A DNA stretch of 64,000 bases from Polymyxa betae A26-41. Taxonomy: Eukaryota; Protista; Endomyxa: Phytomyxea. The DNA is taken from positions 70,115 through 134,114 of the forward strand of contig RBZT01000404.1 of the NCBI GenBank assembly GCA_003693705.1, written 5' to 3'. Numbering within the stretch: the stretch's first letter is position 1; every line of letters begins with the position of its first letter. Below the pieces are notes generated by a model. The model worked only from the letters and a program-made list of their open reading frames with translations. It was not told the origin of the DNA and searched no databases. Below, piece by piece: positions 1,909 to 64,000 of the stretch. The translations under genes were made by a program, and so were the position numbers.

Positions 1909-2551
1909 GAGTTTATCGTCATTTGTCCTATCAGGAATAGGACAACATTGTTTCTTCATATATGCCATCAAAACTTTGATAACAGTGCGGCGTCATGCTA
2001 ATCGGTCGCTTTTCATTGCAGTGTTCGCATTACTTAATTGCGATGGGTGCCGGTGAGTTTATCGATGTTCGTTCATCAGTTTCGTGCACATGGCCGACTT
2101 TGAGCTGCCTCTTGTGTCAGAGAACATCGGGTGCTGTAGCCATTTCTAATCCAGATTCGATGTATCCGCAAAGCATCTGCACCTGATGGTTCGCTGTTCT
2201 ATAATGTCATGATCTCAACCACAGCGAGGAACACATTTTTTTTGGATATTTTATATATCCATGTTCGCATGCAACAAATCGACAGTCACAGAGAAGTAGG
2301 TAAACAGTTTTGCGGACAGATCAAGCTGAGGGTAGCTCAGTCCGATTAACGCATTACGCACATTCTGGGCAGAATATTCTCGACTTTGTGTGCCTTTCGT
2401 AGCTTCCGTTCGCGCGTTTCTGGTGCCCTGGCCGTGTATTCCTTAGTATCTCATCTTCCGGTTATTCTGATTCCAAATCTCTACTCCATCCTCAAATTTG
2501 GTTTATAACATATAACGTCCGTTTGTCATGACCTTGTAACCTCGTCAGACC

Positions 2552-3068
2552 TTGACTACGTTACAGAATAATATCTTCTGTGATGACCCCCCTTTATTTG
2601 ATAGTTTCAACCCAATACAGCCCAAAGATCTTCTTGCGACTGAGGGCATCGAGCGCAACATCAGGCTTCAGTTCGAGCGTCTCGACTACTCCAGGCTCTT
2701 CTTGCCGACGCTCAACAAAAGGATGGAGATGTAGGCTCTTCCAATGTGCCCTACGTGTTCGTGACAGCTCTCCGTGCAACGACGATCACAAGTCTGCTTA
2801 TATCCAAGTCATGAACATGTTCGGCTATTGGGGGCCACGGACAAAGAGACATATTACTCAGGCAAAGTTGGACAAGTACACGGGGTGGCACCACAACTTG
2901 GACGAGTTCGAGCCCGCCACCGACCTTGTGAACGAGATGCTTGTCGAGATACAGGATGACCGCGGTCACGTTCCAGCAGGCGACTTCGAGATCTCTGACA
3001 ACGATCTGATGGCGGAGGAATTGCATCTCATGGGCATCCATCTTTGTGTTCGACGACGGCTTGCCTGA
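2552..3068 (+). pseudogene. Intronless, disrupted orphan coding relic
   Basis: Two overlapping frames with C/G-ending codon bias (GAC GAG TTC GAG CCC GCC ACC GAC); no recognisable motif. Confidence 0.25.
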
Positions 3069-4978
3069 TCGGACTGAAATCGTCGTCCTTTTCGTCACCA
3101 CCCCTCTTCTTCCGTTTAGTTCTTAATTAGCTTTTCGTACTCAACGATCTGTTCTTCCCCAGTTGGTTTGCAACACCGTTCAGCACCCTGATCTGTGAAT
3201 CTCGAAATAGGCTAAAGGCTTGGTAGGGAATGTATGTCAATAGGAATACTGTATATTTCTGATGTATAATTGAATATTTGGAAAGACCAATGAGGTCAAC
3301 CGGAAACACGTTCTGCTTTAATTTATTATGAATTTTCGGTGGCATGAATTTGATCGGATCGGTGGCTGCAAGACGTTTGGTCAAATTGGGGGCGAACACT
3401 TCGAAAAGTAGATGGCAGGCGCCATCATCGGAATTTACGGTGTTTTCCCACATCAGATTGCACGTTCTATCGACGTTTTTCCTCCAGGAACTCATCTGAT
3501 CATGAATCTGTCATGAGAAACAATTTGCTTGCGACGCTTATTTTACAATGCAACATTCGGTCCATCTTTGTTGCAATGGAGAAGTGGATCGGACGCAGAT
3601 CAGTCAACAAACGGTGATTGCAATGTGCAGGAATTTGAAAAAAGTTTAGGTGGGTTGGACATACGGTGCTTTGCCGGGCTTTGAAATTGAATCACAACAG
3701 GTGTAATGGACCAGAACTATTATATATATTTATATAAAAGGATGTTTAGAATTTAAGGGTGCAAAGCTACAGAAGGAAGATACAAGGCTTGGAGAGTATC
3801 GCGATAGAAGAATACAAAAATAGGAACACACAGGAGTACGACGAGTAGACGAAGACTACGAAGGAGACAGAAACTGTGAAGACGAGGCAGAACAGAGTTT
3901 TAGTCTAAAACGGGCGTTAATTGAACTGAGCTACCCTCATTTCAATGAAGTTGATGTATTATCATGTGACAGACTGACAGCAGTAGGAACTGCAGTGCAA
4001 GCAGGCACCGCCCTGCTGAGCTGCATTCTGGGGTTGCGCTCATGAGTCATGACAACAAGTGCCCGTGAAGATGAAATGCTACTGGGAATCGCTATCAGTT
4101 TATTAGAGGAACTCAATAGAAAGCATGGCCGTCAGCGGCTATTGCAAATGAGCAGCCCGCCTGCGTTAATCGCCAGTTTCAAGGCTTGATACAGGCGGAC
4201 GAAGTAATGATTTCCTCGCAGCAACCGAACGAAGAAGCGCCTGAGCCAGCCACTATCTCGAAACCCATTGCACTCGTGTCGCTTCGGCTAGTCCTTCAAT
4301 TACTGAACCTAACACGTCTGCAGCGCAGCGGCAAGTGAAGGGCGTCAGGCAACAAGATGACTACACAAGTTTGGTTATGAATTCCAGCACCACAAACAAA
4401 GCCACAACGTTGACGTACATGAAAGACCGGATGTTGTGGCTTGTCGAAAAAATTCCTTGACCGCATGGAACAGAGGGGATAATCTAAGGCTATAAGCTTG
4501 TAAAACGAGAAGTTTTCATCGGAAAGCATGCGATTGGACTTAGCTCGAGAAAGTCGATATATCCGCAAACCACCAAATAACGCTCAACTGCTGTTTAATG
4601 TTGAAGATTTTCTCTGGATCTTTTCATTTGTTACAGGTAGGTCTAAAATTACCATACAAAGATTTTTAACAAATTTTACCAGACAAGGAATTTAACCGCC
4701 AAAATACAGTCAGAGCTTACAGGGTCAATGGTCAGAAGCTCATTATGACTGGCATGTAGAAATACAGCAACCATTTGAAGGCAGTAGTATTACAATCTCT
4801 GTTCTACGAATGCGATGACATGTTGTTGATGTTAGCAATTGGCATATGAAATAGCAGTCAGCAAACGGCGACTATTGCTACATCTTCAGCATAAAGTTTG
4901 TTGTAGGTTAGCTGTGAGACCATTTGATGACAAACCAATCTGGATCGTCAAATGAGTTGAATAATGTTTTGATAGTTT

Positions 4979-49380: not shown

Positions 49381-49573
49381 CGAGATGCCTGCATATCGTC
49401 TCTATCGTCGAGAGATGCCTGCATATTGTCTTTATCGTCGAGAGATGCCTGCATATCGTCGCTATCGTCGAGAGATGCCTTCATATCGTCGCTATCGTCG
49501 AGAGATGCCTTCATATCGTCTCTATCGTCGATGATAGAGCTGCCTGCATATCGCTCTATCATCTATCATCGAT
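49381..49573. repeat. 30-bp tandem repeat (about 5-6 copies) ending in an 11-bp inverted repeat
   Basis: (cgagagatgcctkcatatcgtckctatcgt)n; inverted repeat gatgatagagc 49530-49540 / gctctatcatc 49553-49563. Confidence 0.9.
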
Positions 49574-52500
49574 GAATGCTGTTCAAAAACCATATCGAGT
49601 TGATGCAATCTCATCAGGACTTTGTTTACAAAGCGACAAATACAGACAAAGCGCCATATTTTGGAGACGAGGATTACAAGTACAGAAACGGACGACGATC
49701 CTGAATAATAAACACGAAGAACCCTCACGCAATGCATTAAAATAAATAACGAAATATTATTGATACACCCATACATTGGGACAGAACGCAGCATTACAGA
49801 CAGAAAGAAATATTAGAAAGATTTCGTTGAGTATATAGATGAATGCAACAACGAAAGCCCGCGCTGAACAAAATCATCACAGGCGACCTTAACACTCGCG
49901 ATCAGCGCTTTGGAATCAAACACCAAGAGAACCATGAATATTTAGACCAAATCGTTTTAACCTTGGATATAATTAGCGACAAATACACACCGACCAGAAA
50001 AGAAAACACATTAGATATTACATTAGCGAATAACTTCGCCGTCGAAAGTCAAATACGGACGAAGGTCCTCCATAAGCTGAGCAATGCTCACAATCCGACA
50101 AAAACAGAAGTGACACTCAAAGAAAATCCAATTCACGACAGAACAGAGCCTGAGCGGCAGAAAATTGAATACTCCCGAAAACGAGGAAAACATCCAAGAA
50201 GCAATAAAGAAATAGAGGAAGAAGAGGAACAATTAACACCAGTACCAATAAAGTTCTGGACATCACAATTGAAAAAGGCAGTCCGACTGCATAATAAGTG
50301 CAGAAGGGTAGCAAAAACCCAAATACGAAATGAAGACACAGAACAAACATATATAAAGTACAAACAGGCTCAGAGAGACTTCAGAAAACTGTTTCGAAAG
50401 ACCACGATGCAAAGATCCCACTGGTGCAGAATTTTATAAACTCATTAAACAACTAGAGCCAAACCTTAGTAAAAAGACATGGCAGCAGAACATCCATACA
50501 CTCGAAGCAGATGAAGAGACTGAAAAGATTGCAAAGCAATTTGAGAGCATATTTTGGACAAGCAGTGAACCCCACAGAAACAGAACGTCGCAAACTAAGG
50601 AACGAGCTCAGAGATATCAGAGACAGAATGCGAGACGAAGAAAGCCCGCACTTCACAATCAGAGAACTAGAGCAGGCCATCAGAAGAGCAAATATGAGAT
50701 CTGCGAAAGGGCGCGACGGAATGTCCAATCGGCTTATCAAAATTGCATACAGACTTCGCAAGAATACTTCTGCAAGCAATTAATAAGCAAATCGAGATAG
50801 GAAAATACCCTCTGGAACGAATAGAAGCTAGATTAATACCACTTCTGAAGCCTAAACCTGGAGAGCACTGACCGATCAGCCAATTACCAAACCTATCTAA
50901 ATCGATAGAATATATGATACAGATCCGAATGAGAGAAATAATACAGTAGAAGCTCGATCGTATTCAATTTGGCTGCAGGCCAGGACATTGTACTATCCAG
51001 GCATTACTGCGTCTTATGCATTACTCGGGATATGCTGCTGGCACTGATCAGCAGTTCGGAGCTATTCTATATGACTTCACAAAAGCCTATGATAGAGTCC
51101 TGAAACATATCTTTGGTTAAAAAGATGATTAGTGGGTATCAAACATGCGCTTTCCGTAGCTTTTAAGGTCTGATTTAAAAGTTTTAAAAGTGCTTTTAAC
51201 TCTGCAGTTGATGCTATAAATCTGTGAAAAATAGGTATTTTTCCGATTTTTTTCGCAAGTTTGCGTGGCCTCCACTTTAAAAGCGCTTTTAACATTTAAA
51301 AGCATTTCCCGAGGTGCTTTTAAGATTTAAAAGCGCTTTTAAAATTCTCCGGAACGCCGACTTTGATACCCCCTATTGAATCAAACACCCCTGCTTATCT
51401 GATAAGCATCATATATTTAACGAAAACAAAAAAATGGAATCCCACAAGGATCCAGTCTCAGTGTACTTTTATGGGACCTCCCATTAAAACCGAAACTCGC
51501 GAACACGTATGTGGATGATACAGTACGATGGGCGCGCAATAAGCCATGACAGACACGTCGCAGAAAATCGCCTAAAGTATCAACTTGAAAGAATGATCAC
51601 CTGGTGCGAGAAGAATAAGATTAGAATCAACACCGACAAAACATTCGTATTATTCAATGAACATAACCCAGATGACTGCATTGTAACAGATAAAATGACC
51701 ATAAAAACGACTGAGTCGATACGCTACTTAGGAGCCCAACTAACAGCCAACAATGACAATAACAATTCAACATTTCTCATACAAACGAGCAAGGTCGCGT
51801 TGTAAGGTTATCAAGCAAATTCAAAAGTACAAAATTCCCCGAAAAGTATGTAAACAAGCATGTACGGCCTTGATTGGAGGTATCTTCAACTATTACCTAC
51901 CCTGGATGGGAGGAGAAATGCATATTAAAGGCACCCTGCGCCCTATTGAAATTGCATACAACGAATATATGAGAACATACACAAGATGTCTAAGATCCAC
52001 TCCAATCCCCATACTTTATGCAGTCTCGAAATTCCCTCTGCTAGAAGATAAAATCAGCACTGACTCTACACTGAGAGTATTACAAGCTGTTGCACAGGGA
52101 AATCTACTGGCAGATGATTACTCGAAATGGGGACAAGGCAGGATGTCATGTCGACGGATGAACCCCCTTTCGGGAAAGCCAGACAGGGCCTAGAAAGACG
52201 ATATGGCTCACGCATCCATTCCCAAGATCTAATACCTTCAAAGATCCTTGAGCGGTTAACAAAATGTAAATTCCACACGAGTGATAAGAAAACAGCCATG
52301 GAGAAACGCCGAAACGGAGAATGAATCCCAATACCCAGATATCGCAATTTGGACTGACGGGTCCTGGAATAGAGAACCGCAAGACCAATGCTAGAGCAGA
52401 TCTAGACACAATCAGATCTTTTAACCACAAAATCGCCAGATACACATATTTACTGGTTCTCTTTCTTGTCTACAGCAGCTTGCCACGTTACCGTACAAAT

Positions 52501-58713: not shown

Positions 58714-60279
58714 GAGTAAATGATGCCGTGGCGGACTTTGTCCTGAGCTGGAAAAAGCCAAAAGGGATCCTGCCAATGCTTGTTTTAGATTTAGGTCGTA
58801 AAGTTTCTGGGCATTATCGCAATAGTAATTACGAAGAGCTGAAATTAATATAGGAATGTTGCTGCCCTCAGTGTGGTTTCATCAAAGAATCTGGAGTATT
58901 GAATTTAGTGAATTTTGGGACAGAATTACCAAGAGGACGACGACATCTGCGCAGCCTGTCACGGCGGGACGTTCCGAAAAAGTATCCGTCGGCGAGTCGG
59001 ACACGATCACTGGGTTATGACCCGGACTGATTTAATGCTGCTTGATAGATTCAGTTCACAATGTCAGATTACAGCCGATAATTCGCTCAATATAGAGCTG
59101 GTTATGACGTCCAGATATGATCAACGGATCTAAGACAGCATCAGCGCCCGTCTGAGCTTCCCGAGCTGGCATATTTGAATCGTTACCGTCGCTGGACGCA
59201 AACACAGCGAAACTCCTATGATGCGGCTGCGACGAAAAACTTCTTTAGTCTGCAATAAGCAGGCCAACGCTGATTTCAAATCCGTCCATGAAACCTCAGC
59301 TAACATTTGACAGAATTCCAAGAGACTCGGCAATGACCTACGGATTATGGCTGACGATGTTATTGCAGGACTGCTTCGCTTTTAACATTTAAACAGAATC
59401 TGGTGCTGGAAGATGCTGGAAGAGCCATTCTTGGATCTTCATCAAACAGTGAACGTAACGTCGAGCAAAGCGATTCGTCACGCAAAAACAAAATGCTCAC
59501 TGAAACGAGGCGGAAGGTTTCGCAAACATTCGGGTACGACCGTCCGTGTGCTTGCTTAGAAGTGATCGGGTGATGACCTGCCCGGGCTTCCGTGAGCGAG
59601 GTTGACGAGATTCGAGGACTGGCAGGCCAAAAGAGCGTAATCTGATTGAAATCAGTGATAATTGCTGAATGCGATTCTACCAGGCCATCTGTTCATTCTG
59701 TTGATATCAGCGAGCGGTTCGTTCAGTGCATTGCTACACTGATCCTCTGGCTTCAGCAAAACCAGATTTGAATTTTGCTTGATGTCTCAAACAAAAACTC
59801 GAAGAAAGAGTTGTGGTAAATTTTAGGATGTGATGATACCATTCACTCGAGCACGAGAAAGATACAGGTTTAATTATCAAATTATTATAAATTCCATTTA
59901 TTTCAATTCAATATTTTCACTTTTTCATCATTTTCTCATGCCAAAATGAATAGACCACGCCCATATATAAGAATGATCAACTTTGTCTGCTTGGACGACC
60001 GAAAAGCTGTTCAGCGAAAGGAGAGTCGGTTTCGGGCGCTGGCTTATTCAGGTAGAACGCAAGCTGTATCATCATACAAGAGGAAAATTTGGACAGGAAC
60101 ATTCGCCGGGGTTTTCTGATATTTGAGCCGAACCGGGATCCTTGTAGAATTCGTCTCCTTTCCGCTTCTGGACGAATCGGCTTCGATACGTTTAGGGCTG
60201 AGTCGAAATCGGATTATTGAAAGGTGTAGATTGCGCATAGCCGGGGGCGTACCCGAATCCATGTCGAAGGGCAGATGCT

Positions 60280-60492
60280 CAATACTTCGAGAGACCTACA
60301 GATCCCCCAAAATCCAGCCAAGCCGCCAATGAATATGACATGGTTATTCGAAATCCTATCGAGACGCGTCCTAAAGGTAGCCCCAAGGCTGGGGCGAAAC
60401 GATCGATAAGTGAAGTCGAGAAACAGCGGAATCGACGTAAGAAGAATAAAACGACCGGGCTGATCAACTCATATGACAAGTATCCAAGATGA
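60280..60492 (+). pseudogene. Possible MULE transposase C-terminal relic
   Basis: VIRNPIETRPKGSPKAGAKRSISEVEK resembles the basic xPxxxRxKGRPK..KRxxSxxE tail of MULE proteins. Confidence 0.3.
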
Positions 60493-61112
60493 TTAAGACT
60501 TAAGAACCTATTTGTGGGACTCCGTGGCCGCACAAACCACTTACTACCGTAGTTGTGCCACTGGTCGCACAAGTTCGAACGATTTAAAGAAACCATCACC
60601 ACTGATGAAATTGAGTGAATTTCGACCGTTCTTGCACTTTGAGCATTAATTGCTTCATAGTGCGAAACTTAATTTTAAATTATCATCCAAATTGTATTTA
60701 TATGGAACTAGTGTGCGTAGACCGCTCCGCTCAGAGCGGAGCGGTCCTTCTTGGGGGCGTTTGCTAAGCGTTTCCTAGTGCGCAGCTTTGTTTATGGGCG
60801 GGGTTGTACGACGCTGTGCTGTGGCGTTGGGTGTTGCTGTAAAAACGAAAGACCCGATTTTCAATGACAAATTCCAGTCGAAACCTCCCACGGAGCCCCG
60901 TCCCCAGCGGTCATTCCGCCTCTGGACCGCTTTTTGAGGCAGTATGAATTTTGAGCACGACAGATTGGATTTTTATCGATGACAAATCCGATTCCGCAAT
61001 TGGTGGGGGCTCTGCCCCCCGCCCCCGGCGCTCGACGCGCGGGCAGCCTCCTTCGTCGGCCGGACAGTCGTCATAACGTCTCGTGTAAAAAAAAACAAAA
61101 ACAAATTCAAAT

Positions 61113-61194
61113 CCCTAATAATAAAGACCCCTAAAAGAACACCCTAAAAACACCCTAAAAAGACCCCTAAAAACACCCCTAAAAAGACCCTAAA
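61113..61194 (+). repeat. Interstitial telomere-like array (7 CCCTAA cores, about 12-bp period)
   Basis: ccctaataataaagacccctaaaagaacaccctaaaaacaccctaaaaagacccctaaaaacacccctaaaaagaccctaaa. Confidence 0.8.
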
Positions 61195-62243
61195 GAAGCC
61201 CCGAAATGTCGGAGCGAAGATAGGCACGATCGCATGCGGGACCGCAAAACCCCCGGTCTCACCAACGCGGGTTTTTCCCTTCCGCGATGCGATGTGACCA
61301 CAGTTCGCGGGCCTCCTACCTCGCTCGATCACCGACCCGCTGACGCGGGTACCCCGGTGATGGGCTCACAGTTGTCACCCCCAGCGAAGCCACTGTCCAC
61401 GCCTAAATCCCCTTCAAATTTGGCGAATTTTCATTTTTTCAGTGTAACGTAAAGTCCGCGAGCCTGTATGTACCAGGCAAGTTGGCCCCAACGAAGCCAC
61501 AGACCACGATAAATCCCGAATAAATTTGGAGAATTTTTATTTTGCAGCGTAACGTAAAGTCCGCAGTCCTGTACGGACCAAGTGGGCAGAAACCGCTCGC
61601 AAAAAACGGGACCTTTTCAGTGTTTTTTGAGTGAATTGCGTAATTGCAAACCGATCGCAATCACGATTGGCAGGTCGTTGACTGGCGCAGTCGACGGAAA
61701 CCCTAATTTGCAATATTCGTTTTTCGAACTGGCCCAACTCCGTCAATATTTGCGAGACGCCGTCGAGATGATGCTCGCACTTTATGATACATTTGCGAAA
61801 TAGTTTGTCGTGTGTCCAGTACGACCAATCCGTGGCTCGTTCCGTGACGGTCTGCGTCCTTGTCAATGGTTTCTGACTGGCCGACTGGCAAACTGTCGAC
61901 GACACCCTAATTTGCAATATTCTTAGTTCGCACTGGGCCAACTCGGTCAATATTGCCGTGACGCCGATGAAATTTTTCCGATCGTCGCACTTTACGATAC
62001 ATGCGACAAAAAAACGTCCCGAGACCTGTACGACTCCGCAGCCTCCTTTCCCGACGTACCGGTATGTACATGAAATAACTGGGGAAGCAGGGAAGGGGGT
62101 CGGCTTTCCCGTGCCGCGACTTACACCAGCGACTGACCCGGGAGGCCGTCCTTTAGCAGCGACTGGCGCCCAGTTCCAACGTTCCCAACAAACTTTATTT
62201 ACAATATAGGGAGTTTTCTGTATTTTAGATGGGGACGAACGCA

Positions 62244-63668
62244 TTAAGCATTGCTGGAAGAAACGGTCCCCGGCAACCATGACTCCAGCAGATATTGTTC
62301 AAACAACTTGGACCCCAGTCGAATAATGTCTTCGTCGACCTGGTTCACGTCCACACTGGCGTAGTTCGTCTTCATGGTTGGCAACTGGTGATGAGCTGCC
62401 ATAGCTACGGATTCCTGTTCTAACTCCGGGACGTGTTTTAGAAGTTCCCGGGCCTGCATATGTCGGAACGCCGTTTGGCGTAAAATGAAATTGCGGTGCA
62501 ACGCGTTCCAATAAACGGCGGTTGAGCTGTGACAGGCGAAGTTGTTTGGCTTCGCCGTTACGGCCAGGAACGCAGAAACATTGACTCGAGCTGCCAGCAA
62601 CAGGATAAATGTTGGCGACGATCGGGCGAATCTGTTCCACCCAAACGCGCAGAAATCGGACACCCGCTTCCGACATGAAATGTAACATAAACGTTCGTTT
62701 TCCTGCAATACAATTGTGATTTTCGGAGCACCGACCATCGCTACTGTTCGTACGCGTCTTATGGGTGATTTTGAAATCGTAGCTGCGCCATCGATGATCG
62801 ACCGAATTCAGACATTGGACAGCCTCGTCGAGTAGCCGACCGATATGTTGGACACCTGCGGGATCGTTACAATCATCACCAGTGAGCAGCATTCGACAAC
62901 CTGAAGCATGAATAGAATCGACTCAGCAATGTGCTCGAGATGATGTCGTTGACGTCGCATCTGTAGTTCCATGATCAGCTGTCCAATAGAATCGGAGATG
63001 GAATGGCGAATGTCACCCCTGATTGAAAGTCTTTCATCTGACCTGTCAAGGGCGTCAATACAGCTCGGACCACGGTTTGCAACGTCTCCGGAACCGGAAC
63101 AACAGATACTTGGCGGTCCCCGATCATCTGCGTCTGCTGTTCGGGATGAAGGCGCTCCTCCTCGAGCAGCGTGTCTCGCTGCGAAAATCAGGCACAATCA
63201 AACGATTGGAACCGTTTTCTATACTCGGTCATAAGCACAGTCTCGCAGGCGCTGGCGGCATTCAGCTGACACCTTGATCACTTGCAGATTGTATCAATTT
63301 ATAAACGTTCTGGATACTGAGCCATTCATGCTGCTTCTTCATGAGCCGCTTCAGCGTGCGTTCGGGCGTCGAATGAGGACCTCGCTCCAGAATACTTTTA
63401 GGAAGGAACGGATAGATACAGCGAGCGATGTCCCTGGTTTGAGCTTGGACAGCCTGTCAAGAATTGAATCCCGGCCCGAGCGAGCTTGGTGACGCCGTCG
63501 TACCTGCTCGATGGATTTCTGCTTGCGTCTGCCTCGGACGCCAAGTGCGGCGAAACTTGCAATCGGCGTCACGGCCTCAATAAGCCACCCCGGAGCGTTG
63601 AATGTTCGGACGCGACCGTTTCGAGGTCGGAACCAACTGTCGTGATGGAAGAGAAATGGATCGTCCAT
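62244..63668 (-). pseudogene. Intron-containing tyrosine recombinase gene, one frameshift near 62475
   Basis: ITHKTRT (catalytic K), FLRVWVEQIRPIV, then HFTP/TAFRHMQA (HxxR box, joined after removing one A), VAMAAHHQLPTMKTNYA (H/W box and catalytic Tyr at 62361-62363). 5' exon ATG 63668 with a 50-nt GT-AG intron. Confidence 0.7.
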
Positions 63669-63789
63669 ATCTGTTGCGATGATGGGAAACGGGATGCTCC
63701 TCGAAACGCTCTTTGTACCGTAGACTCTCTTATAATTGGTCCTCTTATAATCGATTCTCGCTTATAATTGATCCAAAATTCACACGTTT

Positions 63790-64000
63790 CTCATCTCGTC
63801 TCCGACTCTCTATTGCTTCGTTCTCTCGCCTCGCCTCACCTCCGACTCCCCTCCGACCTTCGTCTCCGCTCCGCCTCCGTCTCACCGGCACCGCTCCGTA
63901 CGTCCTTCCTACGCTCCACTACGATCCCCTCACCGCTCCACTCCGACCCTCTCTCCGCTCCACTCCGTGCCCCGCCGCTCCGCCTCCGAGGACTCCCTGA
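63790..64000. repeat. C/T-rich low-complexity tract of (CTCCG)-like units
   Basis: Recurring ctccg/ctccgac/ctccgct units to the end of the window. Confidence 0.8.

Follow-up and report, generated by a model that had tools for sequence, protein, structure and literature searches.

A stretch of 64,000 nucleotides (nt) of Polymyxa betae A26-41 DNA (contig RBZT01000404.1 of assembly GCA_003693705.1, positions 70,115 to 134,114), hereafter the window, carries near its right-hand border a minus-strand hairpin followed by CTAG, the type of 3' end known from Helitrons, and about 1.5 kb from it a spliced gene with motifs of a tyrosine recombinase (YR). Do end and gene belong to one mobile element, and which of them accounts for its movement? 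The best explanation of the locus is that it represents the right-hand 3 kb of one copy of a repeat family ending in hairpin-CTAG|T. We favour, at slightly less than even chances, an old non-autonomous Helitron1-type family that would be moved in trans by a Rep/helicase protein (RepHel) and would carry a decayed, Crypton-like YR gene as a passenger. A first-pass annotation of the window had suggested a new transposon class in which a Helitron end is coupled to a YR. The juxtaposition does exist, as a true mobile end beside a probable YR, but joint travel as a working unit is not shown, because the gene is broken, most copies have nothing that aligns to it at 80% identity, no contig links a paralogous YR to the end, and the left end and any RepHel lie out of view. 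A new class is thus possible and not shown, while passenger capture by a non-autonomous Helitron, the most ordinary option, was absent from the alternatives offered at that time.

The window is eukaryotic DNA of ∼45% GC with introns of 45-56 nt. Its ordinary genes include a DEAD helicase and a P4-ATPase, for which the top database matches reach 40% identity. Evidence on other copies comes from contigs assembled from 4 of 17 listed public sequencing runs and aligned at 80% likeness. X1 and X2 are DNA runs, X1 possibly stemming from the source of the window itself and X2 coming from a separate study, and X3 is taken as an RNA run because GT..AG joints are present in it (its record bears no RNA label). 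Joints and loose ends of X2 and X3 contigs are those among the matches listed; summed contig depth does not equal copy number and was used solely to locate where other contigs align. The right-hand end and the region behind it comprise the following features:

60708..60711, minus strand: terminal CTAG; the T at 60707 opens the AT-rich flank (X3 record 8; X2 depth step)
60720..60746, minus strand: GC-rich subterminal hairpin, with a stem of 12 base pairs (bp) and a 3-nt loop here, and an 8-bp stem and 4-nt loop in two other contigs
60747..62060, minus strand: repeated non-coding subterminal region with internal duplications (contig depth, joints, repeat analysis)
62049..62243, minus strand: 3' untranslated stretch after the stop of the gene, common to at least two other copies (X3 record 10; 62003/62182 joint)

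The Helitron-type terminus is genuinely that of mobile DNA and forms the real boundary of the repeat. Two perfectly complementary 13-bp arms (60746-60734 and 60732-60720, with 1 nt between them) fold as a 12-bp stem with a 3-nt loop (-16.5 kcal/mol) and are followed by 8 nt, by CTAG (60711-60708) and by T (60707), just as first annotated. An arm of at least 12 bp before CTRR-T occurs at this single site in 64 kb and in 0 of 100 block-wise dinucleotide shuffles; an 8-bp arm in this place is not rare (2 observed vs 0.19 expected; present in 15 of 100 shuffles). The compositional boundary described as abrupt is a step from 31% to 56% GC per 100 bases at 60700, but this step is local, since GC stands at 51% at 60300. 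A second copy has its last base here as well: X3 record 8 matches 60707-60798 and continues into 87 nt of a different AT-rich flank. In agreement with this, the X2 depth of 15 increases to 20 in the bin containing 60707 and to 44 one bin further on, as would fit about two extra contigs beginning there. In two X2 contigs with a 13-nt loose end at 60739 the hairpin is shorter; it retains the outer 8-bp stem around a loop of 4 nt, so that the stem is kept while the loop varies between copies. T stands next to CTAG in both flanks observed, and both flanks are AT-rich. The end therefore shows the CTRR terminus of Helitron1, shared in its last base by the second copy, and the hairpin expected ∼11 nt from the 3' end (12 nt here, the outer stem recurring in the two other contigs). 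A search for the hairpin-CTAG pattern returned 61 metagenome loci, none of them with a BLASTN match to the element, and 0 viral loci. Over 61813-61860 (48 nt) a further X3 contig matches the window; beyond this it passes through ACTAG|T into a TCCAA-like repeat, at a place where the window has ACTATT. This is possibly an older internal end or merely a small deletion.

The subterminal region is repeated. Summed X2 depth amounts to 17-67 over 60800-61279 and to 96-244 over 61280-61999, compared with 15 in the flank. At each listed site 3-7 contigs bear letters other than those of the window, and 26 of 87 X2 records are less than 90% alike to it. Internal duplications comprise a 12-bp array (61122-61206), a 41-nt pair 105 nt apart and a 73-nt pair 204 nt apart, and joints that skip 106-217 nt or step back 58-87 nt reveal internal deletions and duplications. 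Sister copies mostly cease aligning at ∼62002-62063. X3 record 10 extends further, in a single-piece alignment over 61804-62212 (35 other letters, 23 gaps) followed by 363 nt unalignable at 80%, and one contig, present in X1 and X2, joins 62003 to 62182. Both reach to within ∼35-65 nt of the stop codon, and the 3' side of the gene therefore belongs to the repeat. Copy number drops from the subterminal region to the gene, where one 1770-nt contig at flank depth spans 61974-63743, as expected if copies differ in cargo.

The gene and its upstream neighbour are organised as follows:

62244..62474, minus strand: C-terminal (tail) frame of the YR-like gene, T-x-x-R-H ... H-x8-Y (Atlas 0.92; signature spacing)
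62476..62855, minus strand: core frame of the YR-like gene, HKT and L..W...RP (motifs; Atlas; paralog at 81% over 62519-62641)
62856..62900, minus strand: 45-nt GT..AG intron (X3 joint 62853/62899, cut +2)
62961..63016, minus strand: 56-nt GT..AG intron (X3 joint 62960/63017, short side 29 letters)
63017..63668, minus strand: 5' part of the gene with ATG at 63668; additional introns 63272-63219 and 63503-63454 are predicted, with no joints
63716..64000, plus strand: separate abundant repeat starting TA|CCGTAG, outside the element (depth, loose ends)

With its ATG at 63668 and its stop at 62246, the gene was correctly described as containing introns: 63016-62961 and 62900-62856 are directly observed as GT..AG joints in X3, and the alignment of X3 record 29 ends at 63273, beside a GT donor. 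However, it is broken, with stops in all three frames once both observed introns are removed. The annotated motifs HKT (62763-62755), L..W...RP (LRVWVEQIRP, 62652-62623), TAFRH (62474-62460) and AHH..T...Y (62396-62361) are all present; the first two share a frame, and TAFRH and H-x8-Y occupy the following one. TPTAFRH, previously given as one motif, dissolves into TP and TAFRH in different frames and needs a frame change near 62475; a further frame break lies at or upstream of ∼62810. Sequencing error was ruled out as the source of these breaks. The 1770-nt contig is free of gaps and differs from the window by 0 letters in X1 and 2 in X2; over 62209-62702 an X3 contig likewise shows no other letters. 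Two DNA runs and an X3 contig thus share the breaks, which places them in the genome itself and means that this defective copy is transcribed. We also considered the tail frame as the true frame throughout, in favour of which speak a single stop after splicing and third-position changes at 3 of 3 displayed paralog differences; it was rejected, the overhang of the paralog having a stop in this frame and such an open frame arising in 822 of 20000 codon shuffles. Over 62807-62301 two frames are jointly open for 170 codons, which codon shuffles reproduce in 822 of 20000 (core) and 1811 of 20000 (tail) cases.

Is the product a YR? Motif order and two Atlas results, rather than a significant alignment, make this very probable. 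In the Atlas the core frame draws DUF3504 and Phage_integrase clusters at 0.86 (recognition 2196, below the bar and a lead only), and the tail frame draws Phage_integrase clusters at 0.91-0.92 in 20 of 30 hits, counting named clusters only (recognition 2433). The signature [HT]-x-hydrophobic-R ... H-x8-Y has a single match across all six frames of the window and turns up in 31 of 100000 shuffles, but this pattern was written after the query had been seen and is satisfied by only 11 of 22 reference YRs. Of the catalytic pentad (R-K-H-R-H/W) and the Y nucleophile, K (of HKT), R, H and Y are found at fitting spacing; T occupies the position of the first catalytic H, and the arginine of box I hinges on the choice of frame and is ambiguous. 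A global hhalign alignment is collinear over the domain, at a score reached by 10 of 100 shuffles. The score against a YR profile of 22 prokaryotic sequences, which includes no YR of Crypton, DIRS, Starship or polinton-like virus origin, is matched by 84 of 2000 shuffles, and that of a frameshift-aware alignment by 30 of 150. No match was obtained with phmmer for the 145-residue core among 1.84 billion proteins, in word searches with core and tail (weak tests), in Pfam (6 pieces) and PHROGs, or among the sequences of the PDB. With tblastn the tail found 3 phage records at E 2 and the core no relative in plasmids; the core likewise had no related loci in viral or metagenome contigs. One viral and three genome loci obtained for the tail were discarded as chance peptide matches in frames lacking a YR-profile match. 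Single-sequence fold models are of low confidence (predicted local distance difference test, pLDDT, 53 and 59), no YR is among the top fold matches of the two models, Foldseek returned nothing under E 0.28, and the best VIA match (Z 4.1) is to an unrelated protein; the tail model was compared without a wide fold search, so that the tail fold is barely tested. The fold and profile check originally proposed for the YR thus gave no significant match. These empty searches, the shuffles that reach the profile scores and the missing first histidine could mean that another host or mobile gene was captured and resembles a YR by chance. We consider this very unlikely, as the Atlas returns the YR clan for each of two neighbouring pieces that lie in different frames, the signature is unique in the window and the alignment is collinear. 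Among known YR elements, Starships would predict a Pfam DUF3435 match, which none of the 6 pieces gives, and the gene lies 1.5 kb from the end toward which it points; in the visible element no reverse transcriptase (RT) frame as in DIRS or Ngaro elements was found.

The coupling of gene and end is only half shown. A 1430-nt X3 contig and an X2 contig match 62519-62641 at 81%, and the depth per bin points to one more X2 contig at about 62272-62432. The overhangs of the 1430-nt contig follow the core frame codon by codon at unexplained offsets of -11 and +8 nt, and this paralog copy may therefore itself be broken. Co-occurrence of gene and end at fixed spacing, the check that the first-pass annotation had recommended, is supported in so far as two copies reach the 3' untranslated stretch of the gene, but no listed contig joins a YR paralog to the hairpin-CTAG end; given that short contigs break at repeats, this is a gap and not a negative. 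At 80% identity, most of the subterminal repeat copies contain no sequence that aligns to the gene.

On the left side, the originally drawn candidate ran on to 64000. The segment 63716-64000 was rejected as the left end of the element, as it is a distinct repeat with many flanks and far higher depth: X1 depth reaches 2e5-7e5 vs 195-233 alongside (∼thousandfold), and loose ends with differing flanks occur at 63715/63716 in X1, X2 and X11. Judging from its type of end, it is likely a mariner-type miniature inverted-repeat transposable element (MITE), and its border lies 48 nt upstream of the ATG. Loose ends gather a second time at 63772, which suggests subfamilies of the TA|CCGTAG repeat. Six patterns for Rep, PIF1 and DDE proteins gave nothing relevant in the six frames of the window, in line with the earlier statement on Rep/PIF1, apart from one unrelated HUH-like match at 33862, and no RepHel was detected in the 19 window frames scanned with Pfam.

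The family is likely of the Helitron1 type: its end geometry fits that of Helraiser, the stem is kept, the drop in copy number is as expected if copies differ in cargo, and the 3' side of the gene lies in the repeat. We propose that a RepHel protein encoded elsewhere would nick the 5'-TC end, peel off one strand, pause at the hairpin and cut after CTAG, the copy being inserted between A and T. The YR gene, either captured or inserted, would derive from a Crypton-like element; Helitron gene capture through hairpin bypass is described (PMC6431247). It would have been copied along with the element at least once and then have decayed, and the MITE would have landed upstream of its ATG later. Several points weigh against this proposal. 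Capture of full-length genes by Helitrons is termed exceptionally rare (PMC6431247), and the exact end with a new flank is known from one contig of depth 4.1. A 5' A|TC junction, an empty site and RepHel are not among the features observed, X1 and X2 both holding the insertion. The right junctions read ACTAGT in 2 of 2 cases, a 6-bp palindrome that equally suits a recombinase core. YR identity is not significant in any alignment test (hidden Markov model, hhalign, phmmer, profile). Finally, a hand count over the 30-nt overhangs of the 1430-nt contig gives 3 identical, 6 silently changed and 2 altered codons out of 11. Since most changes are silent, YR copies were once under selection, and if such a paralog were found inside a hairpin-CTAG element, the term passenger would be wrong.

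That the YR acts with the hairpin-CTAG end, either as the only transposase on a folded end with a CTAG core or as a partner of RepHel, with the locus as a dead copy, is rather doubtful in our estimation and deserves to be kept in view. In its first form, which we rate as unlikely, a Crypton-like element would recombine at a CTAG/ACTAGT core with the hairpin as recognition site, gene-less copies would be internal deletions and the present one a dead autonomous copy. The YR is the sole gene in the visible element, its transcripts are spliced, paralog pieces are biased to silent sites, the window has no RepHel motif, and to the two ACTAGT junctions comes the third contig diverging at 61813. Moreover, Cryptons use 4-6-bp cores and rise in copy number (PMC3212892, PMC9977147). 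However, spacing and sequence of the end closely fit Helitron1 (PMC4778049), and YR sites consist of 11-13-bp arms around a 6-8-bp spacer (PMC3212892), while the palindrome here has a 1-4-nt centre and sits beside the junction rather than around it. The word hairpin is absent from the available text of the Crypton survey (PMC3212892), no listed contig links the paralog to the end, and an intact YR as the only enzyme, characteristic of Cryptons, is not found in this copy, which has no open frame.

In the second form, a larger Helitron with its RepHel beyond the window would retain a working YR that resolves or integrates circles, as in IS91 elements with an integron-like YR. Such IS91-linked YRs, already invoked by the first-pass annotation, are indeed published (bioRxiv 10.1101/542381), Helitron circles are real intermediates (PMC13565253, PMC4778049), the gene is oriented toward the CTAG end and the left part is out of view. 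We nevertheless hold this to be quite improbable, because no RepHel is seen in the window, the gene is not intact, transposition of Helraiser takes place without a recombinase (PMC4778049) and no such Helitron turned up in the literature searched. Another alternative is chance nesting: a Crypton-like remnant and a non-autonomous Helitron would adjoin at this locus only, and YR paralogs would reside in elements lacking this end. Except for short pieces, contig depth over the gene body in X1 and X2 equals that of the flank, the best-seen paralog amounts to only 123 nt at 81% and is more diverged than many subterminal copies, and the locus gathers mobile DNA, such as the MITE at 63716. An accidental neighbourhood is unlikely all the same, since X3 record 10 and the 62003/62182 joint represent other copies running from the repeat into the 3' untranslated stretch of the gene, and no second terminus or target duplication is seen between gene and repeat. 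We retain the Helitron1-type family with a decayed YR passenger as the preferred reading.

As a passenger, a recombinase-like gene with no detectable relatives would join the mobile genes carried by Helitron ends, which is a modest addition. Should the YR instead operate together with this end, the family would unite two transposition chemistries that are separate in eukaryotes and would be a eukaryotic counterpart of the IS91-plus-recombinase elements. Its defined end could then also serve to study the multiplication of YR-only elements, a process not demonstrated experimentally according to a 2026 review (PMC13565253). No description of a Helitron end with a YR gene was found in the literature searched, outside of which lay Repbase reports, subscription journals and supplements.

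Elsewhere in the window, broken frames over 49843-52193 with an endonuclease-RT Pfam match (E 7e-5, under the cut-off) are likely a non-LTR retrotransposon remnant; a 29-nt inverted repeat (51276-51343) and a 30-nt tandem array (49382-49531) were also noted. Inverted repeats of 26 nt, 92% complementary and 1561 nt apart (2327-3939), may delimit an element with terminal inverted repeats (TIRs). A frame of 348 amino acids (12526-13572) has a hydrophobic N-terminal stretch, a 63-nt tandem repeat and no Pfam match. A transcript of the flank contains a 55-nt GT..AG intron on the minus strand (60198-60252, X3), 450 nt beyond the end of the element.

Among known systems, Helraiser ends in a 19-bp palindrome 11 nt before a CTAG that is joined to T in an AT-rich 3' flank (PMC4778049); sister copies here have a 20-nt core hairpin 12 nt before the end, and T follows the end in both flanks observed, which are AT-rich. 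Non-autonomous Helitron1 elements with right ends of the Helibat/Helraiser type share the GC-rich hairpin ∼11-12 nt before CTAG|T, the internal deletions and the differing upstream content, whereas the element described here carries a multi-intron YR-like gene and has only its right end in view. Cryptons resemble it in a single intron-containing YR-like gene, no TIRs seen and a possible short core, ACTAGT (PMC3212892, PMC9977147), but in the available text of these papers a hairpin-CTAG end is not described for them, and the present gene has the Atlas lead at 0.86 and no Pfam DUF3504 match. In Starships the captain lies at the 5' end of a giant element (PMC11162782), a position unlike that of this gene, and copy-out YR elements are treated in PMC10214605. 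IS91 elements with an integron-like YR likewise hold a YR gene inside rolling-circle-type ends (bioRxiv 10.1101/542381), but they are bacterial and encode the HUH transposase on the same element, while no HUH gene is visible here and the YR is broken. Movement of a Crypton YR by the ends of another transposon has a precedent in MarCry-1_FO, a Crypton inside a Mariner (PMC3212892), although that carrier has TIRs and TA duplications. Fanzor1 in the Helitron2 elements CRe-1,2,3 (PMC3627910) shows the same arrangement of non-autonomous Helitron ends around a spliced gene from another type of mobile element; there the cargo is TnpB-like and the ends are of the Helitron2 type with asymmetric terminal inverted repeats (ATIRs), whereas the present element has YR-like cargo and a CTAG end.

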